Shown: positions 2,900-63,580 of the stretch, piece by piece
Numbering within the stretch: position 1 is the first letter of the stretch
Layout: every line of letters starts with the position of its first letter
Source: Deltaproteobacteria bacterium
Lineage (GTDB): Bacteria > Desulfobacterota > Binatia > UBA9968 > JAJDTQ01
DNA length: 64,000 bases
Reading direction: 5' to 3'
Assembly: GCA_026712905.1 (NCBI GenBank)
Contig: JAPOPM010000077.1
Location: 1,413 to 65,412 of the forward strand
Translations under genes and position numbers: made by a program
Notes under the pieces: model-generated
Told to the model about the DNA's origin: nothing
The model's database searches: none
What the model saw: only the letters and a program-made list of their open reading frames with translations

Positions 2900-2936
2900 G
2901 ACGCCGCCGGCCGGTGCCGGGAGTGGAGCCGAGAGA

Positions 2937-3776
2937 ATGACGAAACCCTTCGCGCGGGCGTGGACGGCGGCCGGGGCGCTCTGGATGGCGGCATTGTTCT
3001 TGTCCGGGGCGGCTATGGCCCAGACCCGGCCCGCGGTCCCGGACGACCCGGCGTCACCGCTGTTGCGGCAGGGAACCATTGAGGAGCAGGATCTGACCGG
3101 CTCGGAACCGAAACCGGCACCGCCCGCCGGCGAGACCGTGTCCAAGACACCCGCCGTGACGGGAACGCCGACTTGGCCCGGGCCGGCAGCAAGAATCCCG
3201 GGCCGGGAGTCGGAGGGAGCGGCGGCGCCGCGCGCCGGCACCACGGCTCTCGCGCCGCGACGGGGGCCCGCCGTGCAGGCGCCGACCGTGCCCGCCACCG
3301 GGTCCGATGCCCCGTCGGACCGCGGCACCGGGGACTCCTACCCGCTCCCGGACCTGGCCGCGGTAGTGGGTTCCGGTGTGCCGCAGCGCGAGGCGTCGAT
3401 GAAGCTGTTGCAGCAGGGCCAGGCCCTTCTCCGGGCGGAGCGGCACGAAGCCGCGCTGGCGCGCTTCGAACAAGGCATCCGGGTGGACTCGAGCAATCCC
3501 TACAGCCATTACTTCGTTGCCCGCGCGCACTACTTCCTGGGCAACTATCGCGAGTCCCTGAACTTTCTCGAAGTTGCGGAATCGGGGCTGGCCGTGGATG
3601 ACAGGTGGCTCGCGGAGGTGTATGTCCTGCGCGCTCGCAGCGCCACCGCTCTCGGTTTCCACGCGCGCGCCGATCTCGACTACGTGCGCGCGCTGGAGAT
3701 CCAGCCGTTCCACGGCTACGCCCTGGCGCGCCTCACCACCATCGAACCCGCCGCGCGCGCGAACCGCACCCCCTGA
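2937..3776 (+). CDS. secreted TPR-repeat protein with Pro/Ala-rich linker
   Basis: N-terminal signal peptide (AAGALWMAALFLSGAAMAQ), low-complexity P/A/T region, C-terminal TPR-like helices (YFVARAHYFLGNYRESLNFLEVAE...). Confidence 0.55.
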   Translation: MTKPFARAWTAAGALWMAALFLSGAAMAQTRPAVPDDPASPLLRQGTIEEQDLTGSEPKPAPPAGETVSKTPAVTGTPTWPGPAARIPGRESEGAAAPRAGTTALAPRRGPAVQAPTVPATGSDAPSDRGTGDSYPLPDLAAVVGSGVPQREASMKLLQQGQALLRAERHEAALARFEQGIRVDSSNPYSHYFVARAHYFLGNYRESLNFLEVAESGLAVDDRWLAEVYVLRARSATALGFHARADLDYVRALEIQPFHGYALARLTTIEPAARANRTP

Positions 3777-3853: not shown

Positions 3854-4828
3854 TCACGGCGCGACGCCGGCGGTATCCGGCAGCTCGTAGTTCAACGTCA
3901 GGCGCACGGTCACGGGGTCCCCGGCGACGCTGCCGGGCATGGGGCCGAAGGGCGCGGATTCCCGAACGTTGCGCAACGCCTCCACGTCCAGCACGATGAA
4001 ACCCGACGACCTGGACAGCTTGACGCCTTCGACCTCCCCGTTCCCGTGCACGGCAAAGACCACGTCCACCGCGCCCTGCTGCCGTGTGCGCTTGGCGTAT
4101 TCCGGGTAGCGCGCGTTGCCGCCGATCTTCCGCCGCAGCGACTCGACGTAGGCCCGCTCGCGCGGGTTGCCCGGCTCTTCCCGGGGCTCGGTCCGGATCA
4201 CGCGGACGCCCTCGACCGGTGGAAGCTCGGGCGTTTCCTCACCCCGTTGCCGCCGCCGGATCCGCTCCACGGCCTGGTCGATGAGCACCAGCCGATCCGT
4301 CTCTTCCGTCCGCGGCGGTTCCACCGGCGATGGGCCGGTCCCGTCCCCGGAGCCGGCCGCGGCCGGCGCTTCGGCCACGGGCGTGGGCGGGGTGCGCGGC
4401 TTCGTGAAGAGGCGCGACAGCATGTCGATACGATCTCGCGCCAGCTTGGCGCCGGATCGATGGCCGAGCTCGGTGTAGACGCCCAGGACGCGGTAGTAGT
4501 CCCTCAATGCCTTCAGGGGCTCACCCTTGAGCAGACGCACCTCCGCCGTATTGTGGAGCGCCAGGGCCAGGGACAGGGTGCTCCCCGCCCCCTCGGCCAG
4601 CGACACCGCCTCGTCGAGCTGGCCCAGAGCTTCCACGTAGCGTTCGGCGCGGGCATTCCCTCGCGCCTCGACGATTTTTTCGTATGCCTGCTTTTCGAGA
4701 TCGGGCGCGGCGCCGTTGCCGGGCGCCGGACCGGTCTGCGCGTGCGCAAGGGTCGCCGCGGCCAAGAGCCACGCCAGCACAAGCCCCCGGCGGCACACTC
4801 GCAGTCCGTTCAACAGATGGCCGTTCAT
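3854..4828 (-). CDS. TonB C-terminal-domain protein with TPR-like N-terminal region
   Basis: Probable start MNGHLL... with signal/anchor RRGLVLAWLLAAATLAHA. Pro-rich spacer. C-terminal TonB_C block (YPEYAKRTRQQGAVDVVFAVHGNGEVEGVKLSRSSGF..LD.EALRNV). The upstream 44 codons of the track ORF are not trusted. Confidence 0.6.
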   Translation of the reverse strand: MNGHLLNGLRVCRRGLVLAWLLAAATLAHAQTGPAPGNGAAPDLEKQAYEKIVEARGNARAERYVEALGQLDEAVSLAEGAGSTLSLALALHNTAEVRLLKGEPLKALRDYYRVLGVYTELGHRSGAKLARDRIDMLSRLFTKPRTPPTPVAEAPAAAGSGDGTGPSPVEPPRTEETDRLVLIDQAVERIRRRQRGEETPELPPVEGVRVIRTEPREEPGNPRERAYVESLRRKIGGNARYPEYAKRTRQQGAVDVVFAVHGNGEVEGVKLSRSSGFIVLDVEALRNVRESAPFGPMPGSVAGDPVTVRLTLNYELPDTAGVAP

Positions 4829-4873
4829 GTCCTCGAAGCGGCGGCCGGGACACCCGGTGCCCTGGGCCGCGCT

Positions 4874-5036
4874 AGTGTCGTGTCCCGTAAATTCCTGGCA
4901 TAATTTGCTGGTCTTTTTCGCCGTCGGCTGCGTTGCTCTTCCTCGCGTGGTGCCCGCCACTGCTCGTCATCGCGCCTTGCCGACGACGAAATATCCTGCG
5001 CAACTTATGCCAGGAATTTACGGGACACGACACTAG
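4874..5036. repeat. MITE-like element: 32-bp perfect terminal inverted repeats (CTAGTGTCGTGTCCCGTAAATTCCTGGCATAA) flanking a 99-bp AT-richer core
   Basis: Left arm 4874-4905 is the exact reverse complement of right arm 5005-5036. The proC stop TAG lies inside the right-arm CTAG. Confidence 0.7.
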
Positions 5037-5851
5037 TGCTCGCCTCTCCCCAGGGCTTCCGAACGTTCCGCCGCCTGCAGCACCGCCTCCATGACGGTGG
5101 CACGAAAAGCGCCCTGTTCCAGGGCGAAAAGGCCGGCGGCCGTGGTCCCGGCCGGCGACGTGACGGCATCGCGCAACTCGGCGAGGTGTTCCTTGGATTC
5201 CCGTGCCATGACGGCGGAGCCGTAGACGGTTTGCAGCGCCAGCTTCAGGGCGACGTCCCGGCCGAGTCCCATCTGCACGCCGCCCGCGGTGAGCGCCTCG
5301 ATGAACAGGAAGACGTAGGCGGGGCCGCTGCCGCTCAAGGCGGTCACGGCGTCGAGATGATGCTCCTCCACGGTGACCGCGAGCCCCACGCTCGAAAGGA
5401 TCTGTCCCACCCGATCGAGGTCCTCGCTCCGCGCCCAGCGGCCCCCGGCGTACGCCGAGGCGGCCTCGCCCACGAGACAGGGCGTATTGGGCATGACCCG
5501 GACCACGCGCGTGCCCTCGGGCAGAAGCCCCTCGATACGCGCCAGCGGCACTCCGGCCGCGATGGACACCACCAGCTTGCCGTCCAGCGGGGTGCCGGCC
5601 AGTTCCTGCAACACCGCGTCGATGACCTGGGGCTTGACCGCGAGAATCACGATGTCCGACGAGTTCACCAACTCGACGTTGTCCTGGAGGAACCGGACGC
5701 CTGTTTCGTCGACCAGAGCCTTCCCCAACGCCTCGATGGGATCGCTCGCGGCCAACCGGTTCCGGTCCACCAGACCGGCGCGCAGGATTCCCTGGATGAT
5801 GGCGCTGCCCATCTTGCCGGCGCCGATGAAACCGATCCTGTCCTGGAGCAT
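5033..5851 (-). CDS. proC: pyrroline-5-carboxylate reductase
   Basis: 272 aa. N-terminal Rossmann motif IGFIGAGKMGSAI plus the conserved ProC C-terminal dimerisation region (TSPAGTTAAGL). Confidence 0.9.
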   Translation of the reverse strand: MLQDRIGFIGAGKMGSAIIQGILRAGLVDRNRLAASDPIEALGKALVDETGVRFLQDNVELVNSSDIVILAVKPQVIDAVLQELAGTPLDGKLVVSIAAGVPLARIEGLLPEGTRVVRVMPNTPCLVGEAASAYAGGRWARSEDLDRVGQILSSVGLAVTVEEHHLDAVTALSGSGPAYVFLFIEALTAGGVQMGLGRDVALKLALQTVYGSAVMARESKEHLAELRDAVTSPAGTTAAGLFALEQGAFRATVMEAVLQAAERSEALGRGEH

Positions 5852-5966: not shown

Positions 5967-6365
5967 CTATACGGTCTTGAGCTGCACCGTGCCCTGGGCC
6001 ACGCCGCGAATATAGCCTTCAAAGCCCTGGGGCGAGAAGGTCCACGTGATCCACAGCGGTTCATCATGGTCGTTGACGAACCCGTGGTTGGTGCGGGGCG
6101 GAATGAACACGACCGAGCCCGGGACGATCTCCGTGGTCTCGTCTCCCACGGTGGCCATCGCCCGACCGCCGAACACGAACAGTATCTCTTCGGCGTCGTC
6201 GTGGGAGTGCAGGGGAATCTCGCTGTGCGGATCGACTTGCTGGAGGCCCATGGAGAAGTGGTGCGTCCCGGTCGTGCGGGGTTCGACGCAGGGATAGAGC
6301 GTGCGCGGAGCCTCTCCCTCGATGCGCACGACCTCGGCATCCTCCTTGGAGAAGAAATACTTCAT
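5967..6365 (-). CDS. cupin-domain protein
   Basis: 132 aa with cupin motifs (H.H...E..FV..G and P....H.F.N). Confidence 0.65.
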   Translation of the reverse strand: MKYFFSKEDAEVVRIEGEAPRTLYPCVEPRTTGTHHFSMGLQQVDPHSEIPLHSHDDAEEILFVFGGRAMATVGDETTEIVPGSVVFIPPRTNHGFVNDHDEPLWITWTFSPQGFEGYIRGVAQGTVQLKTV

Positions 6366-6368
6366 GGC

Positions 6369-6794
6369 CTAGTAGCTCTCTTCCTCGGTATCGTTCGTGG
6401 TGAGGCGGCGGAACGTACGGTCGTCGTCAAAGTTCTTCATCATCCGGGATTCCCGTTCCAGCTCTTCCTGGCAGCGCACGCACAGCCGCGTGAACGGCAT
6501 CACCTTGAGCCGGCCCACCCCGATATCCTCGCCGCACTCCTCGCACTCTCCATAGGAGCCCTCGCCCAGCCGGGCCAACGCGTCTTCGATGGCCATCAGC
6601 TTGGTGCGCTCCCGGTCGTTGAGGATCATGTTGATCTCGCGGTCCCGTTCGTCACTGGCGAGATCGTAAGTGTCGCGCCCTTCGTCCTTGGTGCTTTCCA
6701 CTTCTTGTTTGAGCCGGTCGGGAAGGTCTTCCAGGAGCTGGCTCTTCATGTCGAGCAGGGTCTCCCGGAACTTCTTCAGTACGTCTTTTCTCAT
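6369..6794 (-). CDS. dksA: DksA/TraR-family C4 zinc-finger transcription factor
   Basis: Start MRKDVLKK with an AGGAGA SD. C-terminal CEECGEDIG..RL...P....CVRCQ four-Cys finger and coiled-coil N-terminus. Confidence 0.8.
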   Translation of the reverse strand: MRKDVLKKFRETLLDMKSQLLEDLPDRLKQEVESTKDEGRDTYDLASDERDREINMILNDRERTKLMAIEDALARLGEGSYGECEECGEDIGVGRLKVMPFTRLCVRCQEELERESRMMKNFDDDRTFRRLTTNDTEEESY

Positions 6795-6871
6795 GGTCGT
6801 GTCTCCTGGGAAGGGACCCAATTGACCACTATTTGAAAGCGGAGTCAACCAAATTGGGCGCCTCCGGCGAG

Positions 6872-7579
6872 TCAGGAGCCGAACTCAACGATATCGACAC
6901 CTTGCGGTATTTTCAGCCGGAATACCGAGGGATCCAGGGCGAACCCGCGGCGGATGTTCTCGAAACCGAAGGTCCACAGGTTGCCGCCCTCGTCCTCGAT
7001 GCGCACCCGGCGGATGTCGTAGCGCTCGGCGTCGGCGGTGAGGATGATCTCGCGGAGCCCGGCGTTGGCCCGCCGGGGGATCAGCCTGAGCCGGTGGCCG
7101 TCGGCGGTGCTTTCCAGCAACTCGGCGCGAAAGTCCCGTTGCAGCTTGCCGATGCCCAGCAGGAACGACAACGGCAGGTCCGATCGAAACGCCCCACCCA
7201 CGGCCGTCTTGATGACCTGGCGTTCGGCGGGTTGGTAGAAGTAGAGATGGCGCCCGTCGGAAAGGACGAACTGCCCCGCCGGCTCTTCGTAGCGCCAGAG
7301 CATCTTCCCGGGCCGGCTGAAGTAGAAGCTGCCTCTGCCCTCGATGCTCCGGTTGAGCGTGCGGTACTCGGTGGTCTGGTGGAACTCGGCGCTGTAGTCC
7401 CGCGTGGAGTCGTAGCGCCGCTGCACTTCCCGCACCACTTCCGCCGCATTCCGTGCGCCGGCTTGGGGCACAAGCGCCGCCAGGATCGCCGCGCATCCGA
7501 GCGCAACCGCCAATCCCGCCCGTCGGCTGCCCCACGGCCGCGGCAAGCGACCTCCGTCAGGGTCGAGGAGAGTCCGCAT
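6872..7579 (-). CDS. lolA: outer-membrane lipoprotein carrier protein LolA
   Basis: 235 aa with signal peptide and LolA-like beta-barrel family blocks. Conserved ftsK-lolA synteny. Confidence 0.75.
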   Translation of the reverse strand: MRTLLDPDGGRLPRPWGSRRAGLAVALGCAAILAALVPQAGARNAAEVVREVQRRYDSTRDYSAEFHQTTEYRTLNRSIEGRGSFYFSRPGKMLWRYEEPAGQFVLSDGRHLYFYQPAERQVIKTAVGGAFRSDLPLSFLLGIGKLQRDFRAELLESTADGHRLRLIPRRANAGLREIILTADAERYDIRRVRIEDEGGNLWTFGFENIRRGFALDPSVFRLKIPQGVDIVEFGS

Positions 7580-19939: not shown

Positions 19940-20791
19940 ATGATCAACGTCGTCGGAATCGTTGCGAAGTACGGAGAGGAGAAGGCCGAGAAGATCATGC
20001 GCGGGACCATTCCGTGGCTGGAGGGCCGCGGCATGGAGGTGCTCGTGGAGGCCGAGTTCGGCACCGCGGGCGGCAGCGTCGCGCGCAAGGAGGAAATGGC
20101 CGAACGCGCCGACCTGATCGTCGTCCTGGGCGGAGACGGCACGCTCCTGAGCATCGCCCGCCTGGTGGAACGGCCCGAGGTGCCCATCGTCGGGGTCAAC
20201 CTCGGGGGCCTCGGCTACATCACCGAGATCGCGTTGGACGAGCTCGAAGAGGTGCTCGCCAGCACCATCGCGGAGAACTACACCATCGAGAAACGCATGA
20301 CCTTGCAGGTCAGCATTTCGGGCAAGGACGGCGTACAGCACCTCCGTATCCTCAACGACGCTGTCATCACCAAGGGCGCCCGCTCCAAGATCATCGACCT
20401 GGAGACCTACGTCGGCAGTGATTACCTGTGCACGTACCGGGCCGACGGTCTCATCATCTCCACGCCCACGGGATCGACCGCGTATTCGCTGGCGGCCGGC
20501 GGCCCGATTCTTCACCCGGCCATGAGCGCCATCATCCTCTGTCCCATCTGTCCGCACACGCTGACCACCAACCGGCCCATCGTCATCGCCAGCGACGCCC
20601 GTATCCGGTCGACCCTGAGGTCCTCCGGGGACACCGTCATCCTGATCCCCGACGGCCAGGAAGGCATACTCCTGAACAACGGCGACCGCGTGGAGGTGCG
20701 CCGGCACAAGTCGCCGGTGTCGCTGGTACGCCTCCCGACGCGGTCGTACTTCGACGTGCTGCGCAACAAGCTCAAGTGGGGAGAGCGCTAG
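19940..20791 (+). CDS. nadK: NAD(+) kinase
   Basis: GGDGT motif and the NadK C-terminal beta-sandwich. Start MINVVGIV chosen; MASLTT at 19898 is the alternative. Confidence 0.85.
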   Translation: MINVVGIVAKYGEEKAEKIMRGTIPWLEGRGMEVLVEAEFGTAGGSVARKEEMAERADLIVVLGGDGTLLSIARLVERPEVPIVGVNLGGLGYITEIALDELEEVLASTIAENYTIEKRMTLQVSISGKDGVQHLRILNDAVITKGARSKIIDLETYVGSDYLCTYRADGLIISTPTGSTAYSLAAGGPILHPAMSAIILCPICPHTLTTNRPIVIASDARIRSTLRSSGDTVILIPDGQEGILLNNGDRVEVRRHKSPVSLVRLPTRSYFDVLRNKLKWGER

Positions 20792-20827
20792 TGTCCTGTC
20801 TGGTTGATTAACCAGACAGGACACTAG
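20788..20827. terminator. 18-bp-stem palindrome CTAGTGTCCTGTCTGGTT-gatt-AACCAGACAGGACACTAG between nadK and recN (terminator/attenuator or REP)
   Basis: Perfect inverted repeat. The nadK stop TAG is part of the left CTAG. Member of the CTAGTGTC motif family. Confidence 0.5.
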
Positions 20828-58183: not shown

Positions 58184-58224
58184 TCTTCTCCTCCGGAAGT
58201 CTCGGCTGAACCGTTTCTGTCTCC

Positions 58225-58460
58225 ACCCCTCCTGGATTCCCGCTTCCCAGGCTGTGTCAAGACTGATGAGGCAGAGCCCCATCGAGTCGTCATTCCCGCG
58301 GAAGCGGGAATCCAGGGGCGGTGGTGGGGCATTACAGGGGCGTTCCTCCGTCTCGCCACCCCTGGATTCCCGCTTCCGCGGGAATGACGACTCGGGGGTT
58401 GGTGCCCATTCTTGTCCGGGCGACGTTTTGCCACGGCCGCTTCCGCGGGAATGACGTTTT
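58225..58460. repeat. cluster of 4 REP-like elements (GTCATTCCCGCGGAAGCGGGAATCCAGG family) in alternating orientation
   Basis: Copies near 58231, 58289, 58361 and 58431. Each contains the hairpin ATTCCCGC-GGAA-GCGGGAAT. Read as protein they give SFPRKRESRGG / LDSRFRGNDD, which explains the spurious small ORFs. Confidence 0.8.
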
Positions 58461-58480: not shown

Positions 58481-60874
58481 TCAGCCGTCGGCCGGCCGTA
58501 CCCTGCAGAGGGACGACCGGTGCGGCAGCGAGCCGCTGATGGGGTCGCGGTGCTCCGCGTCCACGAGCCCGTTGGGGTTGGCACCGAGCTCGCTGAAGGG
58601 ATCGTGGCCCGGAAGCTCCAATTCCCGGCAGGGCTGCCACCAGCCGTGCTGCAGGCACACCACCCCCGGAATGATCCGCGCGGTCAGGTTCGCCCGCACC
58701 TTGACCGCGCCCTTCGGGCTCTCCACCACCATCCATTGCTTGTGCTCGACGCCGTGCTTTTCTGCCGTATCCGGGTGGAGCTCGGCGCTTGGCTCCGGCG
58801 CCGCTTTGCGCAGGCTCGGCAGCGTCCGGTGCTGGCTGTGGACGAACGTCGTGAACTTGGCGTTGGTGAGGACCAGTGGATACTCGGCGGCGACGTCCGG
58901 CCTGCTCGTGGGGCTCACCGCCGGCTCCTGGTATTCCGGCAGCGGCGGGAACCCGTGCCGCGCCATGCGGTGCGAGTAGATCTCCACCCTGCCGGACGGA
59001 TTGTTGAAGCCCTTCGGGCGGCCCTCTCCGTCGGCATCCGCGTATTTCCGGTACCGCCGGGGGCTCTCCAGGGTCACGCCGCCCGGGTGCGCCTTGAGTT
59101 CCCCCAGGGTCATGCCGGTGGGCTCGAGCTGGTAGGCAAAGGCCGCCTCCACGTCGCCGCCCCAGAAATCGTCGGCGAAGCCCATGCGCTTGGCCAGCTC
59201 GAACACCACCCGGGTGTCCGAGCGCCGCTCCGCCAGGGGCTCCACGGCCTTCGGCCGGTACTGGACGTGGGTGCGGGCATCCACGCGGTGGCGGAACCCG
59301 CCGCAGAGGTGATCCATCTCCAGGAAGCTCGTGGCCGGCAGCACGTAGTCGCAGAGCTGGGCCGTGGGCGTCATGAACAACTCGGTGGCCACCCCCAGAT
59401 CCAGGGCGCTCAAGGCGTCCCGACCGCGTGCCGGGTCTCCGTTGGAAAGCACGGTGTTGGAGCCCAGGTTGATCAAGGCCCGGACCGGATACGGTCTGTC
59501 CTCGAGGATGGCGGTGTAGACGTCGTGGGCGGCGCACGCGCCCACGGTTGCCGGCGGACCCAGCGGTTTCTCGTCGCGGCCGATACGCTTGGCCGCGGCC
59601 TCGGCGGGGAGGAACTCCTTGCCGTCCAGCCCGCGAAGCGGCGCCATGGGCAGCATCAGGTTACCCCCGGGCGCGTCGATGTCACCCAGCAACGCGTAGA
59701 GGATGGAAACGGCCCGGCTGGTCTGGCTCGCGTTGGTATGCTGTCCGATGCCGTTCCACATGAACATGCTCACCGGCCGGCTATCGCCGAGGACGCGGGC
59801 CGCCTCGCGGACCTTCTCCGCGGGGACCCGGGTGACGCCCTCGGACCGTTCCGGCGCGTGGGTCGACGCGAGCCGCGCCAGGGCGGCGAACGCCGGCTCG
59901 CACGAATGCGTGGCGCCGTCCCGACCGGTCACGCTGAAGGTTCCCGACAGCGCCGGACGCACGTTGTCTTCCGTAGCCACCGGAGACCTCGGATCGCAGG
60001 CCGCCGCCCGCTCCGACGTCTCGTCCCAGATCATGTAGCGGTCCGGGCTGCCTCCGGCCGCCACGTCCGCCTCGGTCAAAGCCTCTCCGGTGTCCGTGCG
60101 CAGCAGGAACGGGCCGTTCGTCCAGTCGCGCACGAAGGCCTCGTCGTACCGTCCCTCCTCGATCATGACGTGGACGAGGGCCAGGGCCAGCGCCCCGTCG
60201 GCGCCCGGGCGCACCTGCAGCAGGACATCCGCCTGGCTGCCGAGGCCGACCCGGCGCGGATCCACCACGACGATCTTCATGCCGCGCTTGCGCGCGGTGA
60301 CGACGTCCTGGGCCAGCATCAATTGCGTGGAACTCGGGTTGTGGCCCCACAGGAGAAAGGCGCCGCTGTGAAGCACGTCCGGCGACGGCTGCGGCACGCC
60401 GAACGTGTAACTGAACACGGTATCCTTGTGCCAGTTGCAGACGTGGGTGGTGGAGAGAGCGTTGGGACTGCCGATGCGGTTGAGCAGGCGCGTGGACCAT
60501 TGGCTCACGTCGTCCACCGAGGTGCCGCTGGCGGTGCCCCGGGCCATGACGATGGCCTCGGCGCCGTAGCGCTCGCGAATGTTCAGCAGGCGCGCCGCGA
60601 TGTCGTCCAGGGCCTCGTCCCAGCTCACGCGCTGCCAGCCCGGATCCGCCGCTCCCTTGGGGTTGGTGCGCCGCAAGGGATAGTCCAGGCGCTCCCCGTT
60701 GTAGACCAACTCCGGGGCGGCCTTGCCCTTGACGCAGATGGCGCCGCCGTTGGGATGGTCGTAGTCGGGGTCGAGACGCGTCACGCGTCCGTCCTCCACC
60801 GTGGCGACGGTGGCGCAGTGGGCGGTGCACAGCACACAATAGCCCCGGACCTTCTCGATTTGTGGTTCCGTCAC
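58481..60874 (-). CDS. molybdopterin-dependent oxidoreductase (DMSO-reductase/formate-dehydrogenase superfamily catalytic subunit) with N-terminal 4Fe-4S motif
   Basis: GTG start 5 nt after AGGAG (VTEPQIEKVRGYCVLCTAHC = C-x2-C-x3-C). Molybdopterin oxidoreductase and molydop-binding domains. Confidence 0.75.
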   Translation of the reverse strand: MTEPQIEKVRGYCVLCTAHCATVATVEDGRVTRLDPDYDHPNGGAICVKGKAAPELVYNGERLDYPLRRTNPKGAADPGWQRVSWDEALDDIAARLLNIRERYGAEAIVMARGTASGTSVDDVSQWSTRLLNRIGSPNALSTTHVCNWHKDTVFSYTFGVPQPSPDVLHSGAFLLWGHNPSSTQLMLAQDVVTARKRGMKIVVVDPRRVGLGSQADVLLQVRPGADGALALALVHVMIEEGRYDEAFVRDWTNGPFLLRTDTGEALTEADVAAGGSPDRYMIWDETSERAAACDPRSPVATEDNVRPALSGTFSVTGRDGATHSCEPAFAALARLASTHAPERSEGVTRVPAEKVREAARVLGDSRPVSMFMWNGIGQHTNASQTSRAVSILYALLGDIDAPGGNLMLPMAPLRGLDGKEFLPAEAAAKRIGRDEKPLGPPATVGACAAHDVYTAILEDRPYPVRALINLGSNTVLSNGDPARGRDALSALDLGVATELFMTPTAQLCDYVLPATSFLEMDHLCGGFRHRVDARTHVQYRPKAVEPLAERRSDTRVVFELAKRMGFADDFWGGDVEAAFAYQLEPTGMTLGELKAHPGGVTLESPRRYRKYADADGEGRPKGFNNPSGRVEIYSHRMARHGFPPLPEYQEPAVSPTSRPDVAAEYPLVLTNAKFTTFVHSQHRTLPSLRKAAPEPSAELHPDTAEKHGVEHKQWMVVESPKGAVKVRANLTARIIPGVVCLQHGWWQPCRELELPGHDPFSELGANPNGLVDAEHRDPISGSLPHRSSLCRVRPADG

Positions 60875-60882
60875 GCCAACTC

Positions 60883-60901
60883 CTAGTGTCGTGTCCACTA
60901 G
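60883..60901. repeat. CTAGTG-tcgtgtc-CACTAG palindrome between the FAD-protein stop and the Mo-enzyme start
   Basis: Shares the 14-mer CTAGTGTCGTGTCC with the MITE-like element at 4874. The stop TAG of the upstream gene is inside the palindrome. Confidence 0.6.
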
Positions 60902-63202: not shown

Positions 63203-63339
63203 GAACCCCGGGTTGACGAACCATGACGGACACCCGTCCGGGGCCGGCAATCCCGGCGGACGGGCGCACGGGTACCCGCGCTCATGAGATAGTTCGGCGC
63301 TTTTGGTGGGAACTTTAGGAGGAGACACCGCCCGATACC

Positions 63340-63580
63340 TCGAGTCGTCATTCCCGCGGAAGCGGGAATCCAGGTGGGGTGCGGGGGAAATTCGCCGGTC
63401 CGACCCCTCTCCACCCCTGGATTCCCGCTTCCGCGGGAATGACGGTTCGGGGCGTGGTATCATGTTCGTCGCCGAGCGGAGTTCTGACACGGCTGTTTCG
63501 CGGGGATGACGTTCCGTGACGTGGTTGCGTCGGGAGTTCTGACGCCGGCTGTTCCGCGGGAATGACGAGGGGTTGGCGGG
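63340..63580. repeat. cluster of REP-like elements (same ATTCCCGC-GGAA-GCGGGAAT family plus degenerate half-copies)
   Basis: Forward copy at 63345-63374, inverted copy at 63414-63445, degenerate half-copies near 63490 and 63550 (GACACGGCTGTTTCGCGGGGATGACG). Confidence 0.75.

Follow-up and report, generated by a model that had tools for sequence, protein, structure and literature searches.

According to our analysis, the palindromic 165-bp element that stands between proC and a TonB_C-domain gene in the window (the whole 64-kb stretch of DNA that was analysed) is very probably, as judged from sequence comparison, a non-autonomous MITE of the IS630/Tc1-mariner superfamily. The basis for this is computed: comparison with close relatives shows the element to be an insertion, its family is multicopy and sharply bounded by CTAG, and it has its ends in common with IS630-family elements. 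A preliminary description of the same DNA had already mentioned a non-autonomous transposable element as a compatible reading, which is borne out by more than 120 copies in relatives, by an empty locus in close relatives and by an IS630-family partner. The features referred to below are these:

4872..5036, minus strand (set by the asymmetric core, reading from proC to tonB): the complete MITE, 165 bp
4872..4903, plus strand: TIR on the tonB side, 32 nt
5005..5036, minus strand: 32-nt TIR next to proC, exactly the reverse complement of the TIR at 4872-4903
5033..5036, no strand: terminal CTAG on the proC side, the original target tetranucleotide, containing the proC stop TAG on the minus strand
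5034-5035: presumed duplicated dinucleotide TA, on the basis of the IS630 rule (PMC2170065)
4872..4875, no strand: second CTAG, made by the insertion according to the filled and empty sites, with its TA at 4873-4874
4904..5004, minus strand: core, 101 nt, asymmetric
5033..5851, minus strand: proC (pyrroline-5-carboxylate reductase; Pfam F420_oxidored and P5CR_dimer), the gene upstream of the element
3854..4828, minus strand: TonB_C-domain gene, 324 aa (PF03544, 57 bits), ATG at 4828, the gene downstream
4829..4871, minus strand: original proC-tonB spacer, 43 nt from the element to the tonB ATG, homologous to the entire spacer (44-47 nt) in relatives without the element
20788..20827, no strand: mini-derivative, a 40-bp perfect palindrome CTAGTGTCCTGTCTGGTTGATTAACCAGACAGGACACTAG with the outer 18-20 nt of each TIR only
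60883..60901, no strand: remnant, 19 bp CTAGTGTCGTGTCCACTAG, one TIR tip between two CTAGs

On each strand there is a single, mismatch-free occurrence of the 32-mer CTAGTGTCGTGTCCCGTAAATTCCTGGCATAA, at 4872-4903 (+) and at 5005-5036 (-), and 0 of 100 dinucleotide-preserving shuffles match it, so that the perfect inverted repeat of the preliminary description is real; a repeat finder makes the arms 40 nt long (4869-4908 with 5000-5039), with 95% complementarity. Its right arm had been placed correctly, and the stop codon of proC does lie inside the right terminus, TAG being the complement of 5033-5035. The left arm, given as 4874-4905, was displaced by 2 nt, the element measures 165 bp and not 163 bp, the core 101 bp and not 99 bp, and the left flank, given as GCGCG|, reads ...CCGCG|. 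The core, described as AT-richer, is so only against the flanks (61 versus 70% GC), the arms being the most AT-rich part with 47% GC; the window as a whole has 66%. Positions 1-13 of the TIR constitute the family-wide terminus CTAGTGTC[G/C]TGTC and positions 14-32 a subfamily-specific arm. Inside the core, 4915-4928 pairs with 4979-4992 as an inner stem of 14 bp, and there is a small GUGG/CCAC hairpin whose loop varies; the single-strand fold of the whole element is one long hairpin of -112 kcal/mol (z = -13 versus shuffles). Compared with a profile built from 49 other 165-bp copies, the element of the window matches end to end with E = 3e-50. The sole ORF that runs through it has 53 aa, and in other subfamilies and in the size variants it is interrupted by stop codons or a change of frame; a small-peptide reading was dropped, this ORF not being conserved among them.

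The history of the locus can be read from relatives, whose proC-tonB junctions were obtained via ProC homologues and the contigs then read:

L130, L131 (ProC 98% identical): ...GGGGAGAGGCGAGCA-CTAG-spacer-ATG(tonB), one CTAG, 44-47-nt spacer, no element
L132 (ProC 94% identical): arrangement as in L130 and L131, one CTAG, no element
Window (reference ProC): flanks as in L130-L132, CTAG + 157 nt + CTAG
L133, L134 (ProC 92% identical): 17-nt TIR remnant CTAGCGTCGTGTCCCGG at the proC stop
L079 (found by locus comparison): 27-bp remnant at the proC stop, with arms of another subfamily

The empty sites of L130-L132 read ...GGCGAGCA CTAG C..., with a single CTAG, and their spacer is homologous to 4829-4871 of the window, which has therefore a net gain of 161 bp bounded by CTAG...CTAG. 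By its sequence this gain fits a TA duplication within CTAG; a 4-bp CTAG duplication would give an identical product, because CTAG is palindromic, and this likeness of the two duplications has to be counted among the points against the MITE reading. As to a target-site duplication, looked for at the outer flanks by the preliminary description, there is none separate outside the repeat, and it is concealed inside the palindromic terminal CTAG. The remnants in L133, L134 and L079 mean that the CTAG at the proC stop has been hit more than once. A prediction of the empty site, GGCGAGCACTAGCGCGGCCCAG, was also scanned against metagenomes and gave a single match (L129), which lies at an unrelated locus and which we set aside as due to chance; the real empty sites differ from the predicted one in the spacer. 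Several orthologous pairs exist among the 120 fetched loci, their intergenic flanks being mostly too diverged for the junction to be read, and only L016 versus L069 shows a single CTAG among them.

Since the spacer of the empty sites is only 44-47 nt long, proC and the tonB-like gene most likely form one operon, as far as gene order and distance tell, with the element inside it. It follows from the same comparison that the element does not occupy the promoter region of the tonB gene, as had been proposed: no promoter region was replaced, the spacer in relatives having just those 44-47 nt. The position between two co-directional genes and the very stable fold would be expected of a regulatory hairpin, a cruciform or an oversized terminator dedicated to proC or tonB. 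We find this hardly credible, and the claim that the proC-tonB hairpin is a locus-specific regulator, which had been the other reading of the preliminary description, is rejected: the element is absent from the junction in relatives with 94-98% identical ProC, more than 100 near-identical copies lie beside unrelated genes in both orientations, and the IS630 partner has the same ends. No T-run follows the stem on the operon strand, and a search for intrinsic terminators (stem and T-run) on this minus strand inside the element gave none, the sole in-element match being on the opposite strand. A promoter scan of the region returned no match of σ70 type. A σ54-like TGGCAT...TTGC in the arm was discarded, by inspection only, for its wrong spacing.

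Further copies were sought with a scan pattern composed of the terminus, 20-45 nt and the inner stem, with one genome per species. It returned at least 120 DNA stretches, nearly all of them from Candidatus Binatia-like MAGs and many of them in each genome, the labels among the listed stretches being Candidatus Binatia, Deltaproteobacteria, Thermodesulfobacteriota and Syntrophobacterales; at least one more copy is present in the same population as the window. A profile search gave at least about 120 full-length copies, among the matches listed, in ~0.96 Mb of fetched loci, where a length of exactly 165 bp is shared by 49 of the 84 elements that have both termini. Outside the two CTAGs the flanks are unrelated between copies, and a comparison of the fetched loci shows no longer direct repeat flanking them. 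Copies occur in both orientations beside unrelated genes. Several of the family-bearing genomes are sponge-associated metagenome bins, and a literature search returned nothing relevant on a described MITE of Binatia or of sponge symbionts; the family is apparently undescribed, and belongs to a known kind of mobile DNA.

Longer size classes (174, 185-190, 209-210 and 255 bp) carry small GC-rich hairpins at two fixed places of the core. These nested hairpins lie at core positions ~70 and ~100 in L018, L019, L027, L034, L072, L109 and others, sometimes in tandem, and are of the types GTAGGGGCGACC..GGTCGCCCCTAC, GGGCGGGTTTCAAACCCGCCC and CCCCGGGTCAAGCCCGGGG; the first and the last are also found outside MITEs, and the head of GTAGGGGCGACC..GGTCGCCCCTAC is GTAG, as is typical of REP elements. 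The window has, at 58223-58456 and 63338-63452, another family of repeats, based on CGTCATTCCCGCGGAAGCGGGAATCCAGG and with several inverted pairs of 20-49 nt; by its appearance it is a small palindromic repeat, REP-like or of some other type.

The window itself holds two more members of the MITE family, both of them reduced, in which the terminal motif recurs. In the mini-derivative at 20788-20827 the left CTAG contains the TAG stop of a NAD kinase gene, the other neighbour being a recN-like SMC_N gene; in the remnant at 60883-60901 the second CTAG contains the stop of a FAD_binding_2 gene, the other neighbour being a gene for a molybdopterin oxidoreductase with its GTG at 60874.

Assemblies from the same population encode an identical ProC, and their contigs either end inside the element (L003, L006, L007, L008) or continue across the shared core into another copy, upstream of nuoG (L004, L005). 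The nuoF-nuoG copy is intact in a related MAG (L064, OZ220710.1), and the proC-to-nuoG joins in L004 and L005 are probably chimeric. In L064 the terminal CTAG of this copy (~2920-3090) is mutated to CCAG, and NuoF runs 11 extra codons into the MITE (…IPSVLSNEISC*).

The family has a marked relation to the tetranucleotide CTAG and to stop codons. There are 22 CTAG sites in the 64 kb of the window versus ~200 expected from base composition, a ~9-fold depletion, and six of these 22 belong to the MITE family. Of the 178 non-element CTAGs in 775 kb of fetched loci, 41 are stop codons of called genes. Because CTAG is both depleted and concentrated at TAG stops, a stop codon comes to lie in the terminus: a neighbour's TAG is found inside the terminal CTAG in 39 of 86 copies (45%), and in the window all three family members stand on stop codons (proC, NAD kinase and the FAD_binding_2 gene). 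Each insertion also adds one CTAG target, which explains tandem elements that share a CTAG; such head-to-tail elements with a single shared CTAG, either MITE-MITE or MITE-IS, were seen at L017 ~4146, L028 ~7823, L037 ~6515, L052 ~1036 and L074 ~7890. A reading of the arms as guide-like sequences was tried and abandoned, as they vary by subfamily and not by insertion site. Elements of the IS630 family have TA as their insertion site and duplicate it, with cut-and-paste chemistry as in Tc1/mariner (PMC2170065); going by the title of Tenzen & Ohtsubo 1991, as cited in PMC2170065, IS630 prefers the TA in 5'-CTAG-3'.

The same termini are found 1.16-1.19 kb apart at L078:4708-5893, L080:2609-3768 and L087:6187-7355, as well as in L037 and L100, and the full-length elements hold a single ORF, 372-377 aa long. 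Those of L078, L080 and L087, the three that were scanned, match NCBIfam NF033545 'IS630 family transposase' with 247-279 bits (cutoff 100) and have Pfam DDE_3 and N-terminal HTH domains; the copies in L037 (at 49% identity) and L100 were recognised by tblastn only. The stop of the transposase is again the TAG of a terminal CTAG (...NRTGH*, ...QTRH*). In L037 (related MAG OZ220712.1) a MITE of the window's arm subfamily adjoins the IS, with one CTAG common to both. The arm subfamilies are similar to the ends of different variants of the IS, which fits arms that track transposase specificity. There is also a more divergent MITE copy at L087 2943-3107, in a MAG labelled Gammaproteobacteria, whose arms match its own IS at 6187-7355, both elements lying within one 8-kb stretch; Binatia-like MAGs may not be the limit of the MITE family or of its host range, unless the L087 bin is mislabelled.

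Some of these comparisons speak against the MITE reading. Only the outer 13-24 nt are common to the MITE and the sampled IS copies, no similarity of the core to them being detected beyond the termini, so we do not derive the core from the IS by internal deletion, and tblastn found no IS630 transposase gene in the 64-kb window. The nature of the ends, on the other hand, decides against a REP/REPIN-type palindrome moved via single-stranded DNA by a RAYT (Y1, IS200/IS605-like) transposase. A long hairpin whose two arms evolve in concert, with the hairpin preserved, is indeed a REPIN feature, and true REP-like GTAG-headed hairpins are present in the same genomes. REPINs, however, depend on another transposase class and mechanism without TA or CTAG duplication; here full-length IS630-family elements have the same termini, insertion is into CTAG with one extra CTAG at the filled site (a TA or CTAG duplication), the 165-bp unit with 32-nt TIRs and a unique core differs from REP doublets of 20-40 nt, and no RAYT gene adjoins any inspected copy. 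We consider such an origin very improbable.

For the MITE, it would be logical to suggest, from the known mechanism of this superfamily, that a transposase of the IS630 family, produced elsewhere in the genome, binds both 32-nt TIRs via its HTH domains, excises the element and inserts it at the TA of a CTAG, the TA being duplicated. The target here was the CTAG made of the last sense-codon base and the TAG stop of proC. Insertion regenerated the stop, leaving ProC unchanged, and lengthened the proC-tonB spacer from ~45 nt to ~205 nt. If proC and tonB are co-transcribed, their mRNA would carry a 165-nt hairpin, and by analogy with the Correia elements of Neisseria it could be processed by RNase III.

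Unusual, besides the frequent position on TAG stops of neighbouring genes, is the way in which sequence change is distributed inside the element. Over 49 copies from many genomes conservation is 97% in the termini (positions 1-13), 65% in the arms (14-33) and 93-96% at positions 34-132; the core is thus more conserved than the arms, which is opposite to the usual MITE pattern and speaks against a plain MITE. The arms change in a coordinated manner. Changes on both sides are seen in 26 of the 58 predicted pairs; pairing holds in 98.9% of cells versus 34-52% with partners slid by 1-3 columns, and the observed covariation was reached by 0 of 500 shuffles. Within subfamilies 31 distinct exactly compensated double changes stand against 65 one-sided ones, an example being GTAAATTCC / GGAATTTAC in the window versus GTAATTTCC / GGAAATTAC in L037. 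Such exact compensation is not predicted from transposase binding alone, and arm-to-arm correction or selection for pairing explains it better. Quasipalindrome template switching is an arm-to-arm correction process, and arm symmetry is probably kept by it and/or by selection for pairing.

The same pattern has led us to weigh the possibility that the MITE doubles as a vehicle, its core and hairpin being a selected structured RNA or a protein-binding DNA (for example, a small RNA, or an element for the processing or stability of mRNA). It would add to the MITE reading, and we regard it as unlikely. In its favour are the core, conserved at 94-96% versus ~65% for the arms across subfamilies and genomes, together with the paired changes and compensated substitutions just described. 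The high-frequency mismatches are all of the G.U type on one strand (267 versus 43 A.C cells). Orthologous copies are ~97% identical, with flanks, taken regardless of coding status, at 91-98%, and in co-directional gene pairs there is an orientation bias of 41:25. This bias is weak, however; the G.U excess amounts to ~6-7 independent events, and the left and right ends of the IS are natively imperfect. Youth of the family, gene conversion between copies and quasipalindrome correction can yield the same pattern without function. The central core is weakly paired, REP-like hairpins insert there freely, and the region lacks a σ70-type promoter match, the only terminator-like match in the element being antisense to the operon. 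There is no match of the element to an Rfam family at gathering score; in E-value mode the matches were all far below threshold (given in brackets): SRP 15.9 bits (105), miRNA 17.9 (76) and sRNA sX5 15.2 (50), the sX5 match sitting in the flank just outside the element. There is, in our view, only a small chance that the hairpin and the core strand are kept as a folded nucleic acid, either an RNA module for processing or stability spread through operons of Binatia-like symbionts or a single-stranded hairpin that the element requires to propagate itself. If this were true, interchangeable arms would let one core be moved by different IS630 transposases.

As a MITE, the element has relatives among known systems. 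Stowaway elements are eukaryotic TA-flanked MITEs of mariner-like elements and are analogous. With IS630/ISY100 and Stowaway it has in common a DDE transposase whose N-terminal HTH acts on the TIRs, cut-and-paste transposition and TA duplication; it differs from IS630/ISY100 by lacking a transposase gene and by sharing just 13-24 terminal nt with the IS copies. RUP, the repeat unit of pneumococcus, is a MITE thought to be mobilised by IS630-Spn1, and likewise is small and non-coding, with TIRs that match an IS630-family IS, inserts into TA, and is present in around a hundred intergenic copies per genome (PMC2229807); we count around a hundred intergenic copies as a likeness of both elements. 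RUP has 107 bp, TIRs of ~9 bp and a Gram-positive host, whereas the present element has 165 bp, 32-nt TIRs, a strict CTAG target, several arm subfamilies around one core and a Binatia-like host; similarity in sequence between the two is not to be expected. The Correia/NEMIS elements of Neisseria are similar in size (100-160 bp), in their TIRs of ~24-26 bp with a terminal TA, in long transcript hairpins and in the location between co-transcribed genes, and their RNA hairpins are RNase III substrates (PMC2229807). In contrast to the present family, for which an autonomous partner has been identified, Correia elements have no established one, and they possess IHF sites and promoters, unlike our element with no σ70-type promoter match.

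The identification of the MITE accounts for an intergenic palindrome and for recurrent contig breaks and chimeric joins in MAGs of this lineage. It is a warning not to take the element for a regulator of proC or tonB, and the joins through the shared core are a caution for short-read MAGs of the lineage in general. For transposon biology the advance is incremental and does not constitute a new kind of system. What emerges is an abundant IS630-type MITE family in Candidatus Binatia-like genomes, with an autonomous partner and clean filled and empty sites, and with a target logic of its own, in which, in a CTAG-poor genome, elements land on TAG stops, regenerate the stop and each time create a fresh CTAG. 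Its conserved core and concerted arms make the family a good natural data set on the maintenance of MITE hairpins.
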